Part shown: positions 3,625 through 47,818 of the stretch, piece after piece
Layout of the letters: the number at the start of each line of letters is the position of its first letter
How positions within the stretch are numbered: position 1 is the first letter of the stretch
IMG/VR virus record: IMGVR_UViG_3300021091_000016
DNA: 64,000 bases
From: a virus
Direction: 5' to 3' (one strand)
The notes under the pieces: generated by a model
Database searches by the model: none
The model's input: the letters and a program-made list of their open reading frames with translations, nothing else
What the model was told of the DNA's origin: nothing
Program-made: the position numbers and the translations under genes

Positions 3625-6600
3625 ATGATTATCTCCATTCCAAACAAAACTACCTGTATGCCAAAGGAAAAATATGAGCTATTAACAAGCCTTAATAGCT
3701 ATGGTTCACTTAGCAACGAATTCTTAAATGAATTAGAGCAACAAAAGGTTTACAAAATCGATAATGTAAACTCTGTTATCAGTTCAATTGACAGAAGATA
3801 TGCTCTATCAAAAAACTTATTTAACAATTTGACTTATAAATCAAGACTTAGAAATCAATTGTTTTATCAACAGAATAATGCCTATTTAAATAAATTCTTG
3901 ACTGTTTTTATAGTTGAAAATTGGCATGACAAAAACCAAACATACTTAATTGAAAATATAGTTGCTAACTCTTGTACCCCATTTAAAAATCCTTTCATTC
4001 GTAACTTTAATGAATCTAACTTAATGAGATTGCCTAATCATCTATCAGATCAATATGCTAATTGTAATGGCTTAGAAATTAAAGACATCTATAATATGTG
4101 GCGTGCCTCTGATTCCCCAGATGAATTCAATGAAGTGCTTAAGCAATTAGCAAATGAAAATAAAATTAATCCATTTTATATTTATGCTAATGCAAGTGAG
4201 GAAACGATTCGTCAATTAATTGACGAATCAAATTCAGTTACAAAATCTAATATGAGATCAGATACAATCAGCACTTCAGATGTAAAGAGTATCATAAATA
4301 GTGGGGTGCTTGGTTTAAAATATCTCTCTAATTTTATTTATGCATATTTATTATGTATCACTAAAGATTCGTTATTACTAGATGTAGAAAATGAATTGCT
4401 GACTACTAATAATGGAGAGTATAATTTTATAAATTTACTTTTTGATTTTTCTGGAATGAATCAAAATACAATTATGGGTGACCAATTCTCTATTACTTCT
4501 ATGAACTTTGACGGATTTAAATATAGTCCAATTTCAAGCACAGAAGAAAAACAGTACAAGCTTATTAAAAAATATCATCAATATAAAGTCAGCAATGCAA
4601 AGCAAATTGCAACTCAGAATGAACTTCCAGTATTTTCATGCTTTCCAAAAGAGTGGCTAGATTCTATTGGAATTAATTATTTTGAAAATAATATCAAGGT
4701 AGAACCCTCTCTACCTATAGGCTTTGTATACACTAAGCTCGACAATTATATGTTTAATGTTACAGAGACATCTACCTTAGGTGATTTTTCATTTGTAGGA
4801 GATTATACCTTATCTAAGGTTAAAGCTAAAAATGAAATCGTTAATCTTGTAAACGATAGTCAAAAATCCGTAATTGAAATAGTTGAAAGTGCTTTCAACT
4901 TCGAAGTTGAAAAGATTAATTTAAAGGAAGCATTTTTACAAACACTCACATTTACTAATAATAAGATTAAAGCATTAGTGCTTAACAATTTTACTTCTGG
5001 TTCTCAACCATTCAATATGGAAGTAAAACAACTAACAAAAAATCAATTGATTCAATCAAACAATGCATTCGTACCAATTGCATTCAAAACAACAAAGATA
5101 AATCAATTCACAGGCGAAAAAGAAGAAATTTATTTTGTAAGCTTAGTTAACTTCCAGCCATTAAGTAGCTTTAGAAAATATACAAAATCTCAAAGATATC
5201 TCCAATATCTGAATAATTTGATTGAGTATGATTCTATTCAAGACCCATCTATTTATGACCAAATTCTTGTTAAAAGATTTGGAAATACAATTAAATACAA
5301 TTTAGCAAATCAAGAAGTATACGAAAGCTTTGGAGAGGATTTCGTTATGAAAATAACTGAGCAAGACGTAAAAGAAATGCAGGTTATTGATAATGAAAAA
5401 CTAGCTTTTTTAAATGGTAGTTTGAATATAGATGAAAAGTTAATTACTAAATTCAAAGCCTTAAAAGATAAACAAGATATAATCTTAGCTAAATACACTG
5501 AAGAAGATAAAAGACTTACTGATTTAATTGATTCAAGCATTTTAAATGACAGATATATTGAAGATGATAAAATTCAATTACAATCAATTACAGCTAGATT
5601 GAATGAAAGACTTCAACTAAAGGAAACATTTCCTACAAAAATTCAATTACAAGAAAAAGTATCCAGTGACCAAAGAGCTTTATTCGAATCAATCTCTAAA
5701 GAAGTACAAAAGCTAAATGAAATTCAAATAGAAGCTAAAAGAGATGCAATTGAAAATAAAAATTATATTCCCGATAGTTTTTTTACTGGGTTAAAAACAA
5801 GAGGTATTTACATTCAAGAAATTGAGTATCTGGATCAAAATCAAAATACTTTTAAATTTAACGCTAAGAACTTTAATAAGTTGAGTCTTGATAACATTCA
5901 AGATTTCACTCTAAGCTCTTTAAGTTTTATCGTTAACAAACCATTTAAGATTAAAGTAGATGGAGATGCTGCAAATATCATTTACGCAGGACCAATGAAG
6001 GTTCAAATAACAAATTCAAGTATCTCTGTTGGTGCTTTAAATTCATCTACTATCTTAGGCTTTCTTGATAATAGAAACGCAATGGTACATCCACATTCAT
6101 CTCCTATGAATTTGAGTAGCAATTTTGTAGCAACCGAATTCTTTTCATATAGAAGGGGATGCTTAGGCGAATCATCACCATATATTTACAATGCATTTAG
6201 CTCTACGTCTCCTTTAAAGAATGTTTTAGTAAATGCATTCATTTGGTTATCTAGTGCAAATAGTTCAGATCATTGGGGCAGAAATTACAAATTCTTCCCA
6301 AGATATGGCAGTACATCACTAGTTAACCTAGAAGAGGAAGCAATTAACTTAATTACCATCAATGAATATATTGAATCAGAGGAACCATTATTAAAACCTA
6401 AAAAACAATGTGAACATGAATATGAAAATTCTATATGTATTCATTGTGGATTAGAATGTGTTGACCATAATTACGATTACGATGGTATTTGTACTATATG
6501 TGGGCATTACAATTCACGTTATGATGATTCAGATGAAGAAGATGAAATCTATGACGAAGAGATAACACCAGAACAAGTAAATACAGCTCCAAATGTATAT

Positions 6601-6636
6601 ACACCCTACTCTCCATTAACAAACAATAATAACTAA
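3625..6636 (+). CDS. large protein with coiled coil, C-terminal prokaryotic E2-like (Ubl-conjugating) domain and Cys/His Zn knuckles
   Basis: H822-P-H824 ... G-C846-LG...W...N..D.WG pattern typical of bacterial E2-like folds; directly upstream of JAB, E1 and Ubl; tail CEHEYENSICIHCG/CVDHNYDYDGICTICG. Confidence 0.65.
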   Translation: MIISIPNKTTCMPKEKYELLTSLNSYGSLSNEFLNELEQQKVYKIDNVNSVISSIDRRYALSKNLFNNLTYKSRLRNQLFYQQNNAYLNKFLTVFIVENWHDKNQTYLIENIVANSCTPFKNPFIRNFNESNLMRLPNHLSDQYANCNGLEIKDIYNMWRASDSPDEFNEVLKQLANENKINPFYIYANASEETIRQLIDESNSVTKSNMRSDTISTSDVKSIINSGVLGLKYLSNFIYAYLLCITKDSLLLDVENELLTTNNGEYNFINLLFDFSGMNQNTIMGDQFSITSMNFDGFKYSPISSTEEKQYKLIKKYHQYKVSNAKQIATQNELPVFSCFPKEWLDSIGINYFENNIKVEPSLPIGFVYTKLDNYMFNVTETSTLGDFSFVGDYTLSKVKAKNEIVNLVNDSQKSVIEIVESAFNFEVEKINLKEAFLQTLTFTNNKIKALVLNNFTSGSQPFNMEVKQLTKNQLIQSNNAFVPIAFKTTKINQFTGEKEEIYFVSLVNFQPLSSFRKYTKSQRYLQYLNNLIEYDSIQDPSIYDQILVKRFGNTIKYNLANQEVYESFGEDFVMKITEQDVKEMQVIDNEKLAFLNGSLNIDEKLITKFKALKDKQDIILAKYTEEDKRLTDLIDSSILNDRYIEDDKIQLQSITARLNERLQLKETFPTKIQLQEKVSSDQRALFESISKEVQKLNEIQIEAKRDAIENKNYIPDSFFTGLKTRGIYIQEIEYLDQNQNTFKFNAKNFNKLSLDNIQDFTLSSLSFIVNKPFKIKVDGDAANIIYAGPMKVQITNSSISVGALNSSTILGFLDNRNAMVHPHSSPMNLSSNFVATEFFSYRRGCLGESSPYIYNAFSSTSPLKNVLVNAFIWLSSANSSDHWGRNYKFFPRYGSTSLVNLEEEAINLITINEYIESEEPLLKPKKQCEHEYENSICIHCGLECVDHNYDYDGICTICGHYNSRYDDSDEEDEIYDEEITPEQVNTAPNVYTPYSPLTNNNN

Positions 6637-6647
6637 GGATTAAAGAT

Positions 6648-7772
6648 ATGAAATCTGTAAATTCATTTAAAATCTTAACACAATCATCTGTAGAACCTTT
6701 TATCTCTATGGATTATGATTTAATGCAACAAATTCAACATATTGTTGAAATCGCACCAAAAGAAGCTCAATGGTTTCATCTAATGGAACAAATTGATTCA
6801 GCAGAATTTAGAATCTCAGAGATGTTTATTCCAGAACAAATCTGTAGTTCCGTAGAAGTAGATACTGATAGTCAAATGATGGTACGCTTTTGGAATGAAC
6901 TAAAAGAAAAATATGGCGTAGTAGAAGCCTCTAATAAGTTAACTGTAATGACTGTTTGGTGTCACAGTCATCACAATATGGCGCCTAGTCCTAGCGCTCA
7001 AGATAATACTCAATTCTATCAATTAGTTAAACAACAGAAGGATGCTGGGACTAATAAACCAGTACTTATGTTTATCTTTAATAAACGTAATGAATATTAT
7101 TCTAGATTATGGGATCCAAAAACTAATTTAGTATATGAAGGCTTAGATATCGTTTATACTCATTACGATATGTCTTGGATTGACGCAGAAGCTAAAAAGA
7201 AATTTAAAGAACCACCAATCGTACCTAAGAGTTTTTTAGGTACAACTCCAGCAAATACAAAAGCAACATCTTATTATTGGACGAATCCATTAAAAGATGT
7301 ACCAGCATATAGCTATACTGGAAAAGCAAATGGCAATCATTTAACTGCAAGCACATCATCAAAAATGGCTATTTCAGATTGTTTTGGAGTGACTTACAAT
7401 GAATTCAATGTAATCACCCAACCAATGGCAGATGAATTTGCAAGCTATGTTTCAGATGAATTAGAATCTCAAGAAAAATATATTTTGGCTTCGTTATTAA
7501 GAAAAGATAAAAACTTTTACAATAAAGCTTTAGAAGCAAAGAATAAGAAAATCGCTCCTAAACCATTCAAAGAAACAATTATCAAAGCTATTACCTCTAA
7601 TAAAATGACAATTGGATTACTAGAATGCATTTTGACAAATGTATTTGAAATGTATGACCAATTATTAATAGAGGATAAAGAAAGCTTTGATGTCTGGACA
7701 ACAGATGTTATCGATATGATGGAAGAAACACTAACAGAACCAAAACCTCAATATACCTTGTTCTCTAAATAA
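6648..7772 (+). CDS. JAB/JAMM (MPN+) metalloprotease, putative Ubl-processing/deconjugating enzyme
   Basis: PKEAQW (E39) and WCHSHHNMAPSPSAQD = H106-x-H108-x7-S116-xx-D119. Confidence 0.88.
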   Translation: MKSVNSFKILTQSSVEPFISMDYDLMQQIQHIVEIAPKEAQWFHLMEQIDSAEFRISEMFIPEQICSSVEVDTDSQMMVRFWNELKEKYGVVEASNKLTVMTVWCHSHHNMAPSPSAQDNTQFYQLVKQQKDAGTNKPVLMFIFNKRNEYYSRLWDPKTNLVYEGLDIVYTHYDMSWIDAEAKKKFKEPPIVPKSFLGTTPANTKATSYYWTNPLKDVPAYSYTGKANGNHLTASTSSKMAISDCFGVTYNEFNVITQPMADEFASYVSDELESQEKYILASLLRKDKNFYNKALEAKNKKIAPKPFKETIIKAITSNKMTIGLLECILTNVFEMYDQLLIEDKESFDVWTTDVIDMMEETLTEPKPQYTLFSK

Positions 7773-7781
7773 AGGATAAAA

Positions 7782-8471
7782 ATGTCTGTATCATTTCTTA
7801 GACACAGTGCATTCTTTGGGCCAGAGGATGCAAATCAATATGTATTAAATATCATTGGAGTAGGTGCAACAGGCTCTTGGATTGCTATGCTAGCTGCCAG
7901 AATGGGTTGGCACAAGTTTAGAGTATGGGATTTAGATATTGTAGAATCTCACAATTTACCTAATCAAGCATATACCCATGATGATATTGGTAAGAAAAAA
8001 GTAATCGCGCTTAAGGAACAACTACTTAGATTCAATCCAGAAATTGAAATTGAAACACATGATTATTTCTTTGAATCAGAAAAGCATAAAGAATTACTAG
8101 ACGGGCCAGTTATCATTACTGTTGATTCACTATCTGCAAGAAAGGATATTGCAGAAGCAATTAAAGGTAATTGGAATGTCATGCATGCATTTGAAACTCG
8201 TATGGGATTTACTCATGCAGAAATCAATTACCTAGATTGTTTAAACATCCAATCAGTAGAAAACTTTCAAAACTTACTTAAAAGCGATTCTGAAGTAACT
8301 GAAGCTGCATGTAATGAAAGAATTATCACAACTCTCACTTGCCAAGTTGCAGCAACTGTGGTACATTATTTATGTGCTTTAGTTACCAAAGATAGAAACA
8401 AGAACGAAGTACAAATTAGAAACAAAACTATTTTTACAAATACACCCACACTTTCCGTGTTTGGTATGTAG
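7782..8471 (+). CDS. ThiF/MoeB/E1-like adenylyltransferase (Ubl-activating enzyme)
   Basis: IIGVGATGS, DLDIVESHNLPNQ, DIGKKKV, VDSLSARK, ETRMG; candidate catalytic C177 (AAC). Confidence 0.92.
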   Translation: MSVSFLRHSAFFGPEDANQYVLNIIGVGATGSWIAMLAARMGWHKFRVWDLDIVESHNLPNQAYTHDDIGKKKVIALKEQLLRFNPEIEIETHDYFFESEKHKELLDGPVIITVDSLSARKDIAEAIKGNWNVMHAFETRMGFTHAEINYLDCLNIQSVENFQNLLKSDSEVTEAACNERIITTLTCQVAATVVHYLCALVTKDRNKNEVQIRNKTIFTNTPTLSVFGM

Positions 8472-8480
8472 GAGAAACAA

Positions 8481-8708
8481 ATGCAAGAACAAGAGTTCAA
8501 ATTACAAGATGAATTAACTCAATTGAGTCAAACATTAGCAGCCTTGCAAATTGATGCTCAGAAGTTTGATGATGGTAATGGTGCGGCTGGTAGACGTGCT
8601 AGGTCTTACTTAGCAAGTTTAAGAACAAGTATGCAGTCATTGCGTTTCAAGATTCAAGAAGTAAAAAATCAAAGAATTGCACAAAAGAAAACCCAAGTTA
8701 CTGAATAA
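8481..8708 (+). CDS. histone H1-like Hc1-family small helical protein
   Basis: DAQKFDDGNGAAGRRARSYL...LRFKIQEVKN resembles the Hc1-like consensus. Confidence 0.7.
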   Translation: MQEQEFKLQDELTQLSQTLAALQIDAQKFDDGNGAAGRRARSYLASLRTSMQSLRFKIQEVKNQRIAQKKTQVTE

Positions 8709-8717
8709 GGAAATAAA

Positions 8718-8933
8718 ATGAGAAACATTACATTAGTAATCGTGCCAGGCACAGGCGCAAAACAAATCCAGGTAGAAGACACAATGACCGTAGCAGAGCT
8801 TGTTGCTCGTGAATCTCTATTTGGTAGAGACATCATTGTAAATGGTGTTGGAGTACAAGCCACACAATTTAATACTCAAACCTTAGCAGGTGCAATTGAA
8901 GTATTTGCTACAGGGAGTGTTAAGGGCAATTAA
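8718..8933 (+). CDS. single ubiquitin-like (beta-grasp) protein
   Basis: 71 aa, beta-grasp-type pattern (TMTVAEL, IIVNG), ends FATGSVKG-N; downstream of E1/JAB. Confidence 0.82.
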   Translation: MRNITLVIVPGTGAKQIQVEDTMTVAELVARESLFGRDIIVNGVGVQATQFNTQTLAGAIEVFATGSVKGN

Positions 8934-9083
8934 ATGGATTGGTGGAATAAAAATTCTGACGATCCAATTATTAATCTAATAGTAGGTGTTGGATTTATTA
9001 TCTATGCAATCATTGTAAGCCTATATAATCCGCTATATCTTATTATTTATTGCTTATTAACTATAATTTACTATTTGATTTAA
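8934..9083 (+). CDS. 49-aa hydrophobic membrane peptide (not in ORF track)
   Basis: Starts right after the Ubl stop; MDWWNKNSDDPIINLIVGVGFIIYAIIVSLYNPLYLIIYCLLTIIYYLI. Confidence 0.5.
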   Translation: MDWWNKNSDDPIINLIVGVGFIIYAIIVSLYNPLYLIIYCLLTIIYYLI

Positions 9084-9136: not shown

Positions 9137-9550
9137 ATGTCTACAACAGTAATTGTTATCAAAGGCAACTCTTCTCAAAGCTTATTAAATAGAATTGCAC
9201 AAGCTTTAACAGATGAAGATAGAAATGCTCAAACTACAGAAATCAAACAAAATCTAGTAAGAGCTTTTTCAGATGCAACTCAATTAAAAACAGAAGAAAA
9301 TAAAAAAGAACGCAAAAAGCATGAAATGACTTATAGATTTGATTCAAATCAAGAAAAGCTAGTAAGGGCGTTTATCAATAAGAACCCAAGCTTTACTTTT
9401 AATCAAGTCTGTAACTTTTTAAGGAATGCAGGATATGAAAAGGTATATTTCAGAGATTTAAAAATTTGTTTAACAAAGTTTAATGCTACCTGTAGTATCG
9501 ATTCAATAACCAGAAAGCATACCTGGATTGTAAAAAATGTCAGAAAATAG
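9137..9550 (+). CDS. hypothetical basic protein, possible winged-helix DNA-binding C-terminus
   Basis: 137-aa ORF with AAGGA SD; function inferred only. Confidence 0.55.
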   Translation: MSTTVIVIKGNSSQSLLNRIAQALTDEDRNAQTTEIKQNLVRAFSDATQLKTEENKKERKKHEMTYRFDSNQEKLVRAFINKNPSFTFNQVCNFLRNAGYEKVYFRDLKICLTKFNATCSIDSITRKHTWIVKNVRK

Positions 9551-9623
9551 TTAAATATTTCTGTCATTTTTGACACTTTTTTTCATGTCATTTTTGACAT
9601 TAATTTTTAACCAAAAAATAACA
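9538..9623. promoter_or_regulatory. array of TGTCA-N4-TGACA palindromes at 24-bp period (copy 1)
   Basis: Perfect boxes at 9562 and 9586; degenerate boxes at 9538 and 9610; inverted counterpart at 45166-45251. Confidence 0.7.
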
Positions 9624-9691: not shown

Positions 9692-10558
9692 ATGACTACA
9701 CGTAATCTTACCCTCGTTGTTGTCCCTGGTACTGGCGCACGTTCTATCTCTGTAGATACTACTATGACCGTTGCTGATCTAGTTTGTCGTGAGAATTTAC
9801 ACGGTAGAGATATCATTATTAACGGTGTTGGTGTCAATCCACAATCCTGGAATACCACAACACTTCAAGATGCAGTAGAAGTATTTGCAACTGGTAGTGT
9901 TAAAGGTAATGTTGATAGAACTGTAACTTTAGTAGTAGTTCCAGGTACAGGTGCTAGACAAACAACAATTCCTTCTCAAATGACCGTAGCAGATTTTGTT
10001 TGTAGAGAGAATCTCCATGGCCGTGATATTATTATTAACGGTGTAGGTTGCGCACCAACACAATGGAATACTACAACTTTAGATGAAGCTGTTGAGATTT
10101 TCGCAACAGGCTCTGTGAAAGGTAATGTTCCACAAACTGGAGTACTTGTTGTAGTTCCTGGAACTGGAGCAAGACAAGTAAGCTTTGATTCAGAATCTAC
10201 AATTGCTGATTTCGTATGTGCTAATAATCTACATGGTAGAGATATCATTTTAGATGGCGTTGGCGTTAGTCCTACACAATGGAATAGTACTCAATTAGGT
10301 CAAGCAAGAGAAATCTTTGCAACCGGCAGTGTGAAGGGTAATGCTACTCGTACTGCAACATTAGTTGTTGTGCCAGGTACTGGTGCAAGACAGGTACAAA
10401 TTGATACAGAAATGACTGTAGCTGATTTTGTATGTCGTGAGAACTTACATGGACGTGACATTATTCTTAATGGCGTAGGTGTAGCTCCACAGCAATGGAA
10501 TCAGACAACACTAAATGACACTGTAGAAATCTTTGCTACAGGTTCTGTTAAAGGTAAT
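9692..10558 (+). repeat. four in-frame ~216-bp tandem Ubl-coding repeats
   Basis: Units 9692-9910, 9911-10126, 10127-10342, 10343-10558; conserved motifs use different synonymous codons. Confidence 0.92.
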
Positions 10559-10843
10559 GGCGCTGAAGGGTTTATTGAAGTGACTTATGGAAATGATGCA
10601 AAAACTTGCTTTAAGAGCTTAGTAGATACAGCTATTTACAAGCATGGTCATAATCCTTATAGCGGTACTATTGCTACTGTATCAAGCTTTAAACTTGAAG
10701 AAACAGAGTTTCAAAATGAAGAAGCTGCATTGGCTTATGCAGATGATAAAATCGAGGACTTAGAGAAAAGAGAATGCAGAGCAGTAAGCTTTGTAGAAAA
10801 TAACAAAAGAGGCTTTGTCTTTTATGGTTGGGCTGCCTGTTAA
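9692..10843 (+). CDS. tetra-ubiquitin-like polyprotein (4 Ubl repeats) fused to a 94-aa C-terminal domain
   Basis: Four 72-73 aa repeats each ending FATGSVKGN, paralogous to 8718..8933, then GAEGF...YSGTIAT...FYGWAAC. Confidence 0.85.
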   Translation: MTTRNLTLVVVPGTGARSISVDTTMTVADLVCRENLHGRDIIINGVGVNPQSWNTTTLQDAVEVFATGSVKGNVDRTVTLVVVPGTGARQTTIPSQMTVADFVCRENLHGRDIIINGVGCAPTQWNTTTLDEAVEIFATGSVKGNVPQTGVLVVVPGTGARQVSFDSESTIADFVCANNLHGRDIILDGVGVSPTQWNSTQLGQAREIFATGSVKGNATRTATLVVVPGTGARQVQIDTEMTVADFVCRENLHGRDIILNGVGVAPQQWNQTTLNDTVEIFATGSVKGNGAEGFIEVTYGNDAKTCFKSLVDTAIYKHGHNPYSGTIATVSSFKLEETEFQNEEAALAYADDKIEDLEKRECRAVSFVENNKRGFVFYGWAAC

Positions 10844-11223
10844 TGCTTATTCAAATCGTTGGACTGCCAGGTGTAGGTAAAACAACGCTTATAAATAAAT
10901 TTAAAAATCAATCAACTGTAGATTTCAAAACACTAGACATTAGAAGCTTTCATGCTCCAAATAGAGAAGAAAAACTAATCAATAGCATCTGTAATAAACA
11001 AACAAAATATATTATTGAATCAGCTTGCGGCATTGATATTGAACCTTCTATAGTTATATTAATTAAACAGAAAAAGTTTAATCATAAAAAACAATTGCAA
11101 AGTAGAGGTGAAGTTTACAACGAGTATGATCTACAAGCAATTGATGATCAAATTATTCCAGCAAACTACACGGTATACAATTCAAAAGTATTTTGTGAAT
11201 TACTTAACTATTTACTAAGATAA
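10828..11223 (+). CDS. small P-loop NTPase/kinase
   Basis: IVGLPGVGKTT Walker A; likely start at ATG 10843. Confidence 0.7.
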   Translation: MGCLLMLIQIVGLPGVGKTTLINKFKNQSTVDFKTLDIRSFHAPNREEKLINSICNKQTKYIIESACGIDIEPSIVILIKQKKFNHKKQLQSRGEVYNEYDLQAIDDQIIPANYTVYNSKVFCELLNYLLR

Positions 11224-14263: not shown

Positions 14264-15985
14264 ATGACTTATCAATATTCAGAACATGCAATTAGTTTAT
14301 TAAAAAATTTCTACATGTTAAATGACGAGACAAAACCAGAGGAAGCGTTAAAAAGAGCTGCATATGCATATTCTGCGGGAGACAATGAATTAGCAGAGCG
14401 TATATTTCAATACGCTCTTGATGGTTGGTTTATGTTTTCAAGTCCAATATTAAGTAATGCAAGACTGGATAATTCTAAAACAGGATTACCTATTAGCTGT
14501 TTTTTAACTTATGTACCTGATACTGTTGAAGGCTTAATCGAGCATTCAACTGAATTAAGATGGATGAGCGTAATGGGTGGCGGAGTAGGCGGACATTGGT
14601 CTGACGTTAGGTCTGTATCTAATAAAGCTCCTGGTCCAATTCCATTTATTAAAACTGTAGACAGTGACATGCAAGCCTGGAAGCAAGGAGTCACTAGAAA
14701 GGGTAGCTATGCTGCTTACATTGACGTTAGTCATCCTGATATTATTGAATTTATTAATATTAGGGTGCCTACTGGTGGTGATACGAATAGAAAGTGCTTT
14801 ACTATTAATAATGCTGTCTGTCTTACGGACAAATTCATGAATGCAGTTGCCGATGGCTTAGACTGGCAATTAATAGATCCTGCATCAAATGAAGTGAAGG
14901 AAACTATGCCAGCTAGAGAGCTTTGGCAAAGAATCCTTGAAGTTAGATTTAGAACTGGAGAACCATATTTCTTCTTTACAGACACTGCTAACAAGCATTT
15001 ACCACAATCACTCAAAGAAAAAGGTCTTAAAATTCATGGTTCAAATTTGTGTAATGAGATTTTTCTTTGCACAGATGAAAATAGATCTGCTGTATGCTGT
15101 TTATCATCGTTAAATCTTGAGTATTTTGACGAATGGAAAAATACAACAATTGTTGAGGACTGCATTACCTTCTTAGATAATGTACTACAATACTTTATCG
15201 AGAACGCACCAAAGCAATTACACAGAGCTATTTACTCTGCAATTCAAGAACGCTCACTAGGACTAGGAGCAATGGGTTTCCATTCGTTACTTCAAAGAAA
15301 TAATATAGCCTGGGAATCTCCTATGGCTAAAGGTTTAAATAGAAGAGTGTTTAAGCTAATTCAAGAGCGCGCAATTAAACAAACAGAATTGTTAGCTGCT
15401 GAACGTGGGGAATACTTAGATGGTATTGGATATGGTAGAAGGAATAGTCATCTACTTGCAATAGCACCTAATGCTAATAGTAGTATTATCTTAGATACAT
15501 CTCCTAGTATTGAACCTTGGAAATCAAATGCCTTTACACACCGTACTAGAGCAGGTAGCTTCTTACAAAAAAACAAATATCTAGATGGACTTCTTTTAAA
15601 GGTATTCGCAAATGACGAAACAAAATATAACGAAGCATGGCAATCAATTGTTTTGAATCAAGGCTCTGTACAACACTTAGATTGTTTAAACGAATACCAA
15701 AAGGGAGTATTTAAAACAGCGTTTGAAATTAATCAAGCTTGGTTAATTGAACATGCTGCGGATAGACAAGAATTTATCTGTCAAGGACAATCCTTAAATC
15801 TTTTCTTTCCAGCTGGAAGTGATAAAGCGTATGTTAATTACGTACATATTTTAGCTTGGAAAAAAGGATTAAAAGGATTATATTACCTTCGAACAAATTC
15901 TGGTGCTAAATTAGAAAAGATTTCTGAAAAAATCGAACGAAAAGCACTTAAGGATTATGACGAATGTGTTTCTTGCCAAGGATAA
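14264..15985 (+). CDS. nrdA: class I ribonucleotide reductase alpha subunit (no ATP cone)
   Basis: PISCF, GGGVG, GSNLCNEI, AVCCLSS, IAPNANSS, GLYYLR, C-terminal CVSCQG. Confidence 0.96.
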   Translation: MTYQYSEHAISLLKNFYMLNDETKPEEALKRAAYAYSAGDNELAERIFQYALDGWFMFSSPILSNARLDNSKTGLPISCFLTYVPDTVEGLIEHSTELRWMSVMGGGVGGHWSDVRSVSNKAPGPIPFIKTVDSDMQAWKQGVTRKGSYAAYIDVSHPDIIEFINIRVPTGGDTNRKCFTINNAVCLTDKFMNAVADGLDWQLIDPASNEVKETMPARELWQRILEVRFRTGEPYFFFTDTANKHLPQSLKEKGLKIHGSNLCNEIFLCTDENRSAVCCLSSLNLEYFDEWKNTTIVEDCITFLDNVLQYFIENAPKQLHRAIYSAIQERSLGLGAMGFHSLLQRNNIAWESPMAKGLNRRVFKLIQERAIKQTELLAAERGEYLDGIGYGRRNSHLLAIAPNANSSIILDTSPSIEPWKSNAFTHRTRAGSFLQKNKYLDGLLLKVFANDETKYNEAWQSIVLNQGSVQHLDCLNEYQKGVFKTAFEINQAWLIEHAADRQEFICQGQSLNLFFPAGSDKAYVNYVHILAWKKGLKGLYYLRTNSGAKLEKISEKIERKALKDYDECVSCQG

Positions 15986-45165: not shown

Positions 45166-45251
45166 TGTCAAAAATTGGTTAAAAATTAATGTCAAAATTG
45201 ACATGAATATTTCTGTCAAAAATGACACTTTTTTATAGCCTAAAATTGACA
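45166..45251. promoter_or_regulatory. array of TGTCA-N4-TGACA palindromes at 24-bp period (copy 2)
   Basis: Perfect boxes at 45190 and 45214; half boxes at 45166 and 45238; upstream of primase-helicase. Confidence 0.7.
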
Positions 45252-45322: not shown

Positions 45323-47818
45323 ATGTATATTACTAATATTGAAGAAGTAGTTGGGATATTAAGATCAAAGTTAAAGGACTACTTAACAAAGAAATTAAAT
45401 TTAGACGCTAGTTCTAATAAGCTTAAATGCTTTGCACATGATGATAATGATCCATCTATGCATTTTAATCCAAAAACAGGCAATGAAACTGTAAAATGTT
45501 TTTCATGTGGATTCACTGGAGATATCTTTACTTGCGCAAACCATTTAGAAAATCTACCGTTGAATGGTCCAGAATGGTTACATGTAACCATTCCTACATT
45601 ATGTGACTATCTAGATATTGCTTATTCTCCAGGAGAGCTAAGCTTAATGGATAAAGAAAAGATTAATCTATATAAGCTTGCACAAGACATTTCAGATATT
45701 ATGTCTAATCAAAGAAATGTAGACATTCCTTATCTTGTAGAAAGAAATTGGATTCAACAATTCTCTGTGATTGGTTCTATTGATTCACAAGAACTAATTA
45801 ATCTTTTAGTAGCAAAGGGATGGGATGCCGGATTTATTAATCAAAGTAATTTTATTAAAACAAAATTCCATACATATTTTGGAAAAGACAAAGTTACCTT
45901 TGCAATCAAAGACCATGTAAAAAGAACAGTAGGCTTTATTTGCCGCAATTTAAATATTACAGAAGACCAACCTAAATATGTGAATAATCCTGAAACTCTT
46001 ATTTACAAGAAATCTCAAGCCTTAATGGGTATTGATGTTGCATTGTTACAAGCTAAGAAGGATGGCTTGTATGTACTTGAAGGTCCTGGTGACCTTATGC
46101 AATTGTATCGTTTAGGAATTACTAATGCAGTTGCTGTTTGTGGAACTGCTTTCACAGAATCACATCTATTATATTTAAAAACCTTAGGCATCAAAAAGAT
46201 TTTCTTTAATTTCGATTGGGATAAAGCAGGATATACTGCAACTCAAAGAGTATTTGAATCAATCTTAAAGGCTACTAGTGGTGTTTCTTGTTATGTAGTA
46301 ATGCCTCCTAAAGGCTCTCAAGCAAAAGACCCAGACGAATATCTAAAGGATAAAACATCTGCAAGTGACTATCTAAGCTTAGAAAAGATTAGCAGCTTTA
46401 ATTGGCTTATGAAAACATTTAGCGATACTGAATCTCCAGATGTAATTTGTCAAAAGATGATTCCTGTGATTGCTGCTGAGGATGCAGCAATCAAACGTGA
46501 GCTATTGATTAAGTCTTTATCTACATTTACTGGTATCAGCGAGTCATCTATTGGAACTGACGTAAACTCTATTAGAAATAATAAATTTAATGAAAAGCTA
46601 GATAGATTAAAGAACGCCGCAGACAAATACATTAAAGATGTAGAGGAAGATCCAGATGGTATTCGTTCACATATGGCTAATCACGAATTAGCCATTGAGA
46701 ATATCGAGAAAGAATATCGAAACAATACTATCGGGATTAACTATCAATTATCTAGATTTGATGCAATACAACAGCAAAGAGAGGAATCTGTAAGTGATGA
46801 GCAAGCTACTAGCTTTAAAATGAATTGGTTCAAGGACTTTGAATCTAATTTAGCTGGTGGTATGAATTGGGCTTCTGGTTGTTTGATGTATGTAGGCGGT
46901 AGAGCTAACAGTGGTAAGACTGCAACCTGTTTGATGATTGGTACTGACATTGCAAATAGTGATGAAAATGCTGTAGTTTTGATTCATAGTACAGATGATT
47001 CATATGAACAAATTGAGCCGCGTATTAAAACAAATCTATATAGAATGATTGCACCTGATGGACCTAAGCTATCAATTGGTATGATGGTTCAACCTAATAT
47101 CAATCTTAGAGGTAAATCAAATGATTATCAAAAGGCTTGGGAGTTAGCTAATGAAAGATTTAGAGAACTAATCGAAGAGGAAAGACTGGTAGTTATTGAC
47201 TCTGAGGATGGCGCAACTCTATCTGTACTAGAAAGAAATCTAAGATATTATAGACAACGTTATCCTAATAAAAAGATTCTTTTAGTATGTGACAATACTA
47301 TGAATTACATGGATTTTCTTAATCTAGACCAAACTGCAAGAATTACTCAAATTAGTAATATGCAAAAGAATTTAACAGTAAAATACAAATGCACTATGAT
47401 TGCAACTGCAGAGTATCGCAAGAATATGAATGCAGATTATTCTAAATTTAGATTGCCAGTAGATGATGATTTGGCTGATGCACGTGCATTGATGTATAGA
47501 CCAAATGTAATCTTCCACGTATATAATGATATTCATGACCGTAAGGAGCATGCAGAAATATTTTGGAATGATGAAGAAGGTAATATGCGTCCTAGATTGC
47601 TCTTGCATTTTACTAAGAATAAGATATCTTCATTTAAAGAGAAAATGTTTTTAGATTTAGATATTACAAGTGTAACTCTCAAACCAGTAGATTCTAAGTT
47701 TGCACAACAACAAACAGAAAGATATCGTGATTTAAAGGATCAAGGTATTGTAGAGTCTGATGGTAAAAGAGTAAACTACGTAGAAGCAGAAGATTACGAA
47801 GAAGAAAGCGAGGACTAA
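45323..47818 (+). CDS. DNA primase-helicase fusion (CHC2 Zn finger, DnaG TOPRIM, DnaB-like helicase)
   Basis: CFAHDD...CFSCG, PKYVNNPE, LEGPGD, FDWDKAG, KDPDEY; GGRANSGKT. Confidence 0.9.
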   Translation: MYITNIEEVVGILRSKLKDYLTKKLNLDASSNKLKCFAHDDNDPSMHFNPKTGNETVKCFSCGFTGDIFTCANHLENLPLNGPEWLHVTIPTLCDYLDIAYSPGELSLMDKEKINLYKLAQDISDIMSNQRNVDIPYLVERNWIQQFSVIGSIDSQELINLLVAKGWDAGFINQSNFIKTKFHTYFGKDKVTFAIKDHVKRTVGFICRNLNITEDQPKYVNNPETLIYKKSQALMGIDVALLQAKKDGLYVLEGPGDLMQLYRLGITNAVAVCGTAFTESHLLYLKTLGIKKIFFNFDWDKAGYTATQRVFESILKATSGVSCYVVMPPKGSQAKDPDEYLKDKTSASDYLSLEKISSFNWLMKTFSDTESPDVICQKMIPVIAAEDAAIKRELLIKSLSTFTGISESSIGTDVNSIRNNKFNEKLDRLKNAADKYIKDVEEDPDGIRSHMANHELAIENIEKEYRNNTIGINYQLSRFDAIQQQREESVSDEQATSFKMNWFKDFESNLAGGMNWASGCLMYVGGRANSGKTATCLMIGTDIANSDENAVVLIHSTDDSYEQIEPRIKTNLYRMIAPDGPKLSIGMMVQPNINLRGKSNDYQKAWELANERFRELIEEERLVVIDSEDGATLSVLERNLRYYRQRYPNKKILLVCDNTMNYMDFLNLDQTARITQISNMQKNLTVKYKCTMIATAEYRKNMNADYSKFRLPVDDDLADARALMYRPNVIFHVYNDIHDRKEHAEIFWNDEEGNMRPRLLLHFTKNKISSFKEKMFLDLDITSVTLKPVDSKFAQQQTERYRDLKDQGIVESDGKRVNYVEAEDYEEESED

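Follow-up and report, generated by a model that had tools for sequence, protein, structure and literature searches.

Does a bacteriophage make ubiquitin-like (Ubl) proteins as a head-to-tail precursor that is afterwards cut into single tags? The question is raised by the open reading frame (ORF) 9692..10843 (+ strand) of IMGVR_UViG_3300021091_000016, an uncultured phage of ~150 kb from which a window of 64,000 nucleotides (nt) was analysed; coordinates given without a locus name refer to this window. The ORF has an AGGAG 6 nt 5' of its ATG and encodes 383 amino acids (aa), i.e. four Ubl units of 72-73 aa and a 94-aa C-terminal 'cargo' or passenger domain, all joined without linker. This layout, given in a preliminary description of the locus, was confirmed. 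We put a probability of about 0.65 on the 383-aa product being a polyprotein precursor that is cut at every junction and that belongs to a phage-encoded Ubl system. Comparisons with relatives in other phages support this precursor model well.

The repeat architecture could be read directly from the ORF product. Unit borders were defined by splitting the product after each SVKGN, giving R1 (9692..9910; 73 aa), R2 (9911..10126; 72 aa), R3 (10127..10342; 72 aa), R4 (10343..10558; 72 aa) and the passenger (10559..10840; 94 aa), all on the + strand. The same nine residues, FATGSVKGN, terminate all four units and a separately encoded free Ubl (8718..8933, + strand; 71 aa), whose stop codon directly follows KGN, and not one spacer residue lies between units, as the preliminary description had stated. 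No start codon is present at any unit boundary of the ORF, so that the units could be separated only by proteolysis. Tandem Repeats Finder reported a period of 216 with 2.9 copies and 67% matches. Pairs of units from R1 to R4 share 64-81% identity in protein and 62-74% in DNA, and the PGTGA motif is coded in four different ways in the four units, as had been noticed earlier; the free Ubl uses yet a fifth coding. In these paralogue pairs synonymous sites have reached saturation (proportion of synonymous differences, pS, 0.60-0.72) and the ratio of non-synonymous to synonymous divergence (dN/dS) is 0.11-0.26. These values bear out the suggestion of an old duplication under protein-level selection, and R1-R4 are old paralogues kept under purifying selection.

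A β-grasp fold, on which the proposal had been said to stand or fall, is predicted for the units. An AlphaFold2 model of R4, the unit used for structure modelling, was made from a 62-sequence alignment and reached a predicted local distance difference test score (pLDDT) of 93.3, with elements in the order β-β-α-β-β-β and an extended tail of low confidence. The closest structures were MoaD (Z 9.3, root-mean-square deviation 1.6 over 69 residues) and ThiS (Z 9.1, 1.6 over 63 residues) in VIA, followed by ubiquitin, ISG15 and NEDD8, and all 52 chains at Z >= 8 were of Ubl type. Foldseek gave template-modelling (TM) scores of 0.6-0.73 to ubiquitin, ThiS and Caldiarchaeum ubiquitin. A Pfam scan of the free Ubl returned no match; relatives gave SAMP2 and ThiS Pfam matches below or near the cut-off and some weak Lambda_tail_I matches.

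Four β-grasp domains in one chain might also function uncleaved, as non-covalent binding or scaffold modules for the C-terminal domain. The UBL domains of Rad23 and parkin work as non-covalent modules. Bacterial Ubls with two or three tandem β-grasp domains have been treated as single proteins (PMC1779556, PMC11601603), and cleavage in the precursor model is something that we infer. The wider family makes an uncleaved protein improbable. Among 228 cluster representatives, 123 have one unit, 67 two, 28 three and 10 four, and no protein with more than four units was found. Of 381 units, 379 retained the nine-residue tail of the free Ubl and every one had Gly-Asn, whatever followed. What follows the Asn ranges from nothing to 146 unrelated residues, the types being a stop codon, a short variable tail, a Gly/Arg-rich peptide, a peptide of the ..NFTM type, the passenger (94-98 aa) and, in a single case, a 146-aa protein that is a homologue of the product of the window's ORF 9137-9550. 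Exactly at the Asn, 71 of the 228 proteins stop; none stops at the Gly. Unit number also shifts by whole modules: three-unit relatives have lost different units (leaving R1-R2-R3, R1-R2-R4 or R1-R3-R4), one two-unit form is R1-R4, and the module boundaries were exact in every three- and two-unit form compared. Unit types are, moreover, encoded as separate genes or as di-, tri- and tetra-unit genes in related phages, and the passenger too is a separate gene in relatives. The retained tails, the whole-module changes and the separate genes argue against an uncleaved function, as does the predicted engagement of the tail by the neighbouring JAB protein (see below).

Comparison with relatives also revealed purifying selection on each unit. 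Between the window and locus L001, dN/dS was 0.18-0.29 for every orthologous unit, indicating that each is individually maintained. In a tree of 249 units the clades follow position: R1 groups with the first units of homologues, and R3-type units, the most divergent (ILDG, REIF), form their own clade across phages. No concerted evolution was seen, given the identities above, the saturated dS and the position-specific clades. A fixed order of units with position-specific identities would be explained if only the R4-passenger junction were cut and the four-unit chain were activated and attached as one ready-made linear block, and ISG15 and FAT10 are established examples of two-domain modifiers. 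We consider this still less probable than an uncleaved protein. The tails within the chain do not differ from the one at its end, and at either kind of junction the sequence beyond the Asn varies, so that nothing visible would shield the internal sites from the same protease; that the same unit types are separate genes in relatives also speaks against a single cut.

The preliminary description had proposed two Ubl classes, since the four repeats share a Cys and an LHGRD motif that are absent from the free Ubl. The absence holds in the window, whereas the division into two classes fails across the family, in which 42 of 120 free Ubls have the Cys and 97 of 120 the His. The Cys and LHGRD are the family consensus, and the free Ubl of the present phage group, which forms a separate clade of 21 in the 249-unit tree, is the derived form, in an orthologous clade of its own. 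Relatives were found in an alignment-based Ubl scan of IMG/VR, whilst a scan with a single JAB protein as the query gave no confirmed loci. There was no match to the region by blastn against 50,697 phage records, and tblastn of the poly-Ubl protein found no cultured relative with a Ubl and only weak passenger-domain matches in Caulobacter jumbo phages.

Three further members or partial members of the family were encountered. A free-type Ubl on a 47-kb viral contig (L013:7998-8213; 71 aa, ending in KGN) had no JAB, E1 or Hc1 gene in its 8-kb flanks. A 68-aa cassette ORF (L009:7555-7761) matched the Ubl profile and lacks both the PGxGA loop and the KGN tail; its product is possibly a non-conjugatable Ubl. 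Protein P0042 (L006) joins a capsid-like N-terminus (a weak Phage_capsid_3 match) to a free-type Ubl of which the C-terminal 60% is present, a link that would be interesting if real; it was set aside as a probable assembly chimera because its contig is of 890 nt at a coverage of 2.

The candidate processing enzyme is a JAB/JAMM metallopeptidase encoded nearby (6648..7772, + strand), in which the JAB part comprises the N-terminal ~190 aa and the C-terminal half is variable. It matched Pfam Prok-JAB at 25.5 bits (cut-off 25) and PADLOC JAB models at E 6.6e-6. Its JAMM motif, E...H-x-H-x7-S-x2-D, is intact, with E39, H106, H108, S116 and D119 invariant in four homologues of 36-64% identity. Co-folding of JAB(1-190) with R4 and zinc scored 0.82, as compared to 0.00 for the best of three controls; in calibration, 58 of the 80 solved complexes reached the mark, as did 2 of the 110 mismatched pairs. 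Contacts agreed between runs at >=98%, with a partner pLDDT of >=92. The predicted interface contains E39, H106, S116 and D119 on the JAB side and residues 64, 66-72 and 8-16 (i.e. the invariant PGxGA loop) on the Ubl side. The Ubl tail is thereby predicted to enter the active site of JAB; the co-fold supports binding, short of showing it.

The C-terminal domain behaves as a protein in its own right. The preliminary description had suspected a stand-alone phage protein without its Met, and a search of a library of 1.84 billion representatives found 149 matches, mostly free proteins of ~100 aa. In most alignments residue 1 of the query paired with residue 2 of the free homologue, and 84 of the 88 matches of <=125 aa begin with (M/V)G where the fused domain begins; nearly all of these 88 end in GWA-x-x. 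The passenger is a separate cassette gene in L003/L004 (e.g. L003:9591-9899, in the same cassette as Ubl genes), L009/L010, L011, L012, L014 and L016/L017, and among the loci examined its fusion to the last Ubl unit is confined to the window, L001/L002 and L008. The occurrence of fused and free forms in related cassettes argues for a fused copy that functions as a free protein. In unrelated phages, two free homologues lie in early or replication regions that lack Ubl genes and gave no functional clue, and neither the passenger nor its free homologues matched Pfam, NCBIfam or PHROGs. The AlphaFold2 model (pLDDT 97.2) is of α/β type and matched phage 'hypothetical protein' clusters of the ESM Atlas at TM 0.82-0.85. 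Matches to condensation domains of non-ribosomal peptide synthetases (best Foldseek PDB E 0.056, TM ~0.4) and a VIA-wide best Z of 4.6 were taken to reflect a generic α/β sandwich and no relationship. The domain also occurs as long arrays in giant proteins, i.e. P0163 (3579 aa; 18 matched stretches) and P0194 (1897 aa; 4 matched stretches).

Other proteins are joined to Ubl units as well. At L005:2716-3369 (P0041) a single Ubl with the tail FATSSVKGN is fused to a homologue of the 137-aa protein encoded at 9137-9550 of the window, a second kind of Ubl-passenger fusion. A conserved basic Gly/Arg-rich peptide of 24-33 aa (..GPSQTGRPSGGGRGNN..) follows KGN, often on the last Ubl gene before PhoH (e.g. 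L012:8863-9159, L014:8499-8813, L018:7779-8285 and L019:8360-8731), and is possibly a nucleic-acid-binding mini-passenger.

The composition of the units fits attachment to lysines. Apart from the invariant Lys of the tail, 208 of 249 units contain none; Lys makes up 0.3% of unit residues as compared to 7.3% in the ORFs of the window, a 24-fold depletion, whilst Arg is normal (4.3% versus 3.3%) and 7 of the 94 passenger residues are Lys. The depletion fits a tag that is joined to lysines and has to avoid becoming a substrate itself; a role as sulfur carrier would leave it unexplained. A function of the units as sulfur carriers of ThiS/MoaD type, which the E1 would thiocarboxylate for a thiolation reaction such as nucleic-acid or cofactor modification, in place of protein tagging, is very improbable in our estimate, despite MoaD and ThiS being the closest folds, the E1 being ThiF-like, some members being named 'sulfur carrier protein ThiS' by JGI and JAMM trimming of ThiS-like carriers being known from QbsD/QbsE and Mec+/CysO, as five diverged paralogues per genome, the lysine depletion and unrelated passengers would be unexpected, the tail is KGN and not GG, and none of the cassettes showed a sulfurtransferase, cysteine desulfurase or thiolation enzyme.

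We infer cleavage, activation, conjugation and the use of lysine targets, and the following sequence of events is proposed for the precursor. The neighbouring JAB/JAMM protein would bind each β-grasp unit and thread the FATGSVKGN tail into its zinc site. It would then cut all unit borders, releasing the passenger (94 aa) together with four non-identical Ubls of ~7.6 kDa. Adenylation of the freed Ubls, and of the fifth Ubl with its own gene, would follow at the new C-terminus, carried out by the adjacent ThiF-type E1, and the tags would be joined to lysines of phage or host targets; with almost no Lys in the Ubl body, they would escape such modification themselves. The fusion would tie the output of the passenger to Ubl production and JAB activity, as eukaryotic fusions of ubiquitin to ribosomal proteins do.

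Several observations weigh against this model. The large protein that opens the cassette and carries an HPH...CLGE motif has no Pfam, NCBIfam, PADLOC or PDB sequence match, and no E2 was recognised. The NCBIfam ThiS model TIGR01683 scored 37.2 bits for the whole four-unit protein, under its cut-off of 37.45, and the 62-sequence Ubl profile found neither a solved relative nor a sequence-level relationship to ubiquitin among PDB sequences. Some C-terminal tails (the Gly/Arg-rich and ..NFTM types) are conserved and might be retained and not removed. As JAMM-ubiquitin complexes have already been solved, the pass of the co-fold may reflect likeness only, and because the construct ended at the Asn the complex cannot place the scissile bond. 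From what is known of JAMM enzymes, no invariant residue would be expected after the presumed cut site.

This last point bears on where the precursor would be cut. The preliminary description proposed a polyubiquitin-style precursor cut by JAB at the Gly-Asn bond; comparison and prediction support the precursor and its enzyme (invariant tail, split genes, free passenger, JAMM motif and docking). As to the bond itself, we give about even odds to a cut between Gly and Asn and one between Asn and the next residue. In all characterised Ubl systems known to us a C-terminal Gly is activated, and the JAMM enzymes that we know of cut after Gly. Eukaryotic precursors are also capped, yeast UBI4 ending with an extra Asn. 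In favour of the later bond, the Asn is as invariant as the Gly whilst the positions beyond it vary, and VKGN mirrors LRGG in character. If the cut fell after the Asn, the passenger would begin with the Gly that is also N-terminal in its free homologues once their Met is trimmed, a point weakened by the Ser or Ala that is the first residue after the Asn in 4 of 32 fused forms. E1-like enzymes that act on a C-terminal Asn exist, e.g. MccB on microcin C7. The invariance of the Asn, the 71 Asn ends and the Gly at the start of the passenger together make a cut after the Asn about as likely as one before it. Superpositions that reach the tail pair Asn72 with Gly76 of ubiquitin or Gly66 of ThiS; this part of the model is of low confidence and was counted for neither site.

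A more specific proposal, which we hold only tentatively and at odds clearly below even, is that the mature tags end in Asn, i.e. that JAB cuts after the Asn and that the ThiF-type E1 activates the C-terminal Asn as MccB does. VKGN would then replace LRGG, and activation could pass via a succinimide and yield a linkage chemistry new for protein tags. Asn ends of this kind would explain the invariant Asn, the presence of 71 stops at Asn and none at Gly, the lack of a visible canonical E2 and the Gly start of the passenger.

The Ubl genes are part of a conserved cassette. Thirteen distinct loci have the fixed order of a large protein (727-1115 aa), JAB, a ThiF-type E1, an Hc1-like protein, between one and three Ubl genes, to which the passenger may or may not be added, and PhoH. 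The E1-like adenylating enzyme of the ThiF family (7782..8471, + strand; 229 aa; Pfam ThiF E 5.9e-24) lies two genes 5' of the free Ubl in the window and was found in each of the 13 cassettes that had sufficient flank; the NCBIfam ThiF score of 82 bits is under the cut-off of that model. Its nearest solved relatives by sequence are PaaA, the ThiF-type protein 9egc, TcdA, UBA5, MccB, Cap2 and MoeB, with matches that cover the nucleotide-binding half only. The Hc1 (chlamydial histone-H1-like) protein (8481..8708, + strand; Pfam Hc1 E 1.1e-11) is encoded between the E1 and the first Ubl gene in all 13 loci and might be a partner or target of the Ubl system. In the large protein (3625..6636, + strand; 1003 aa) the HPH...CLGE motif is C-terminal and is invariant in three homologues, making this part a candidate E2-like domain; ESM Atlas feature matches of the C-terminal domain were all <0.9.

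Genes immediately around the poly-Ubl ORF are closely packed. The ATG of a small P-loop NTPase gene (10843..11223, + strand) overlaps the poly-Ubl stop codon at 10841-10845 (TAATG), and the passenger, free or fused, is directly 5' of the P-loop gene in L001, L003, L008 and L011 also. A conserved gene for a very hydrophobic 49-aa peptide (8934-9083) begins immediately after the stop codon of the free Ubl (TAAATG) and has counterparts at L001:7214-7363, L008:6985 and L006:770. Readthrough of the stop codon from the free Ubl into this ORF was considered and rejected: the two are in frame in the window and out of frame in L001, indicating coupling and not readthrough. The palindrome TGTCATTTTTGACA occurs twice, at a spacing of 24 nt (9562-9575 and 9586-9599), in the 141-nt gap 5' of the poly-Ubl gene, and a second pair, also 24 nt apart (45190-45203 and 45214-45227), lies 5' of a primase-helicase gene (45323-47818). 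These two pairs account for all four matches in the window (0.04 expected). The palindrome was not found in the fetched relatives; it is likely a shared operator or promoter element. Elsewhere, the large subunit of ribonucleotide reductase has an intein with LAGLIDADG in L001 (12562-15390; 942 aa) and is without it in the window (14264-15985; 573 aa).

Among known systems, eukaryotic polyubiquitin and ubiquitin-fusion genes are closest in design, and the ThiS/MoaD-E1-JAMM systems that lack an E2 closest in parts. Polyubiquitin (yeast UBI4, human UBB/UBC) consists, like the phage protein, of β-grasp repeats without spacers, each with a complete tail, and in polyubiquitin, UBA52 and RPS27A, as in the phage ORF, extra residue(s) or an unrelated protein follow the last unit. 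The need for a dedicated peptidase before the tag can be activated is a further shared point of design. Eukaryotic units are identical copies ending in LRGG, whereas those of the phage are diverged, position-specific and end in VKGN; the owner is a bacteriophage and the likely processing enzyme a JAMM metallopeptidase encoded next door. QbsE/QbsD and CysO/Mec+ are E2-less systems of ThiS/MoaD type with a JAMM peptidase. These and the archaeal SAMP/UbaA/HvJAMM1 system combine, as does the phage, a ThiS/MoaD-like β-grasp protein, a ThiF-type E1 and a JAB protein, with no recognisable canonical E2. SAMP, QbsE and CysO end in Gly-Gly and are single-unit genes, in contrast to the tandem, Lys-poor units ending in Gly-Asn of the phage, the cassette of which adds an Hc1-like protein and a protein of ~1000 aa. 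In the archaeal system JAB trims C-terminal extensions or cleaves Ubl fusions (PMC4443979, PMC4895103).

The Bil, Bub (6E) and type II CBASS (Cap2/Cap3) operons share with the phage a neighbourhood of E1, JAB and Ubl genes (PMC1779556, PMC10557695, PMC11601603, PMC11601596), and the phage E1 and JAB gave weak matches to CBASS E1-E2 and JAB models. Unlike the phage cassette, these operons serve host defence or stress responses and have an E2 that can be recognised, and neither the phage Ubl nor the large protein gave a significant match to any Bil-, Bub- or CBASS-specific model. In 6E operons, tandem runs of two to three Ubl domains were called 'reminiscent of poly-ubiquitin' in 2006 (PMC1779556), and Bub-type multi-domain Ubls have been presented as single proteins, internal cleavage not being mentioned (PMC11601603). 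The tail assembly protein I of lambda and T1 is, as here, a phage Ubl fused to a C-terminal domain, with a predicted release by JAB (TAPK) at the last Gly of the Ubl (PMC1779556). That protein has a single unit, no E1 and a tail-assembly context, whereas genes for replication and nucleotide metabolism surround the present cassette. In the literature we found no account of phage poly-Ubl precursors of this family.

Polyubiquitin and ubiquitin-fusion genes are regarded as a eukaryotic route to making tags, and bacterial Ubl conjugation has so far been known mainly as an anti-phage defence. Here a phage lineage has a full Ubl cassette with precursors of one to four units, some of which carry passengers. 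If cleavage and conjugation are confirmed, the design of precursor plus peptidase arose or persisted outside eukaryotes, and the phage would offer a simple system for asking what a bacterial virus tags with up to five Ubls. It would also test whether an E1 can activate an end other than Gly, and would provide the first functional handle on the passenger, a widespread phage family.

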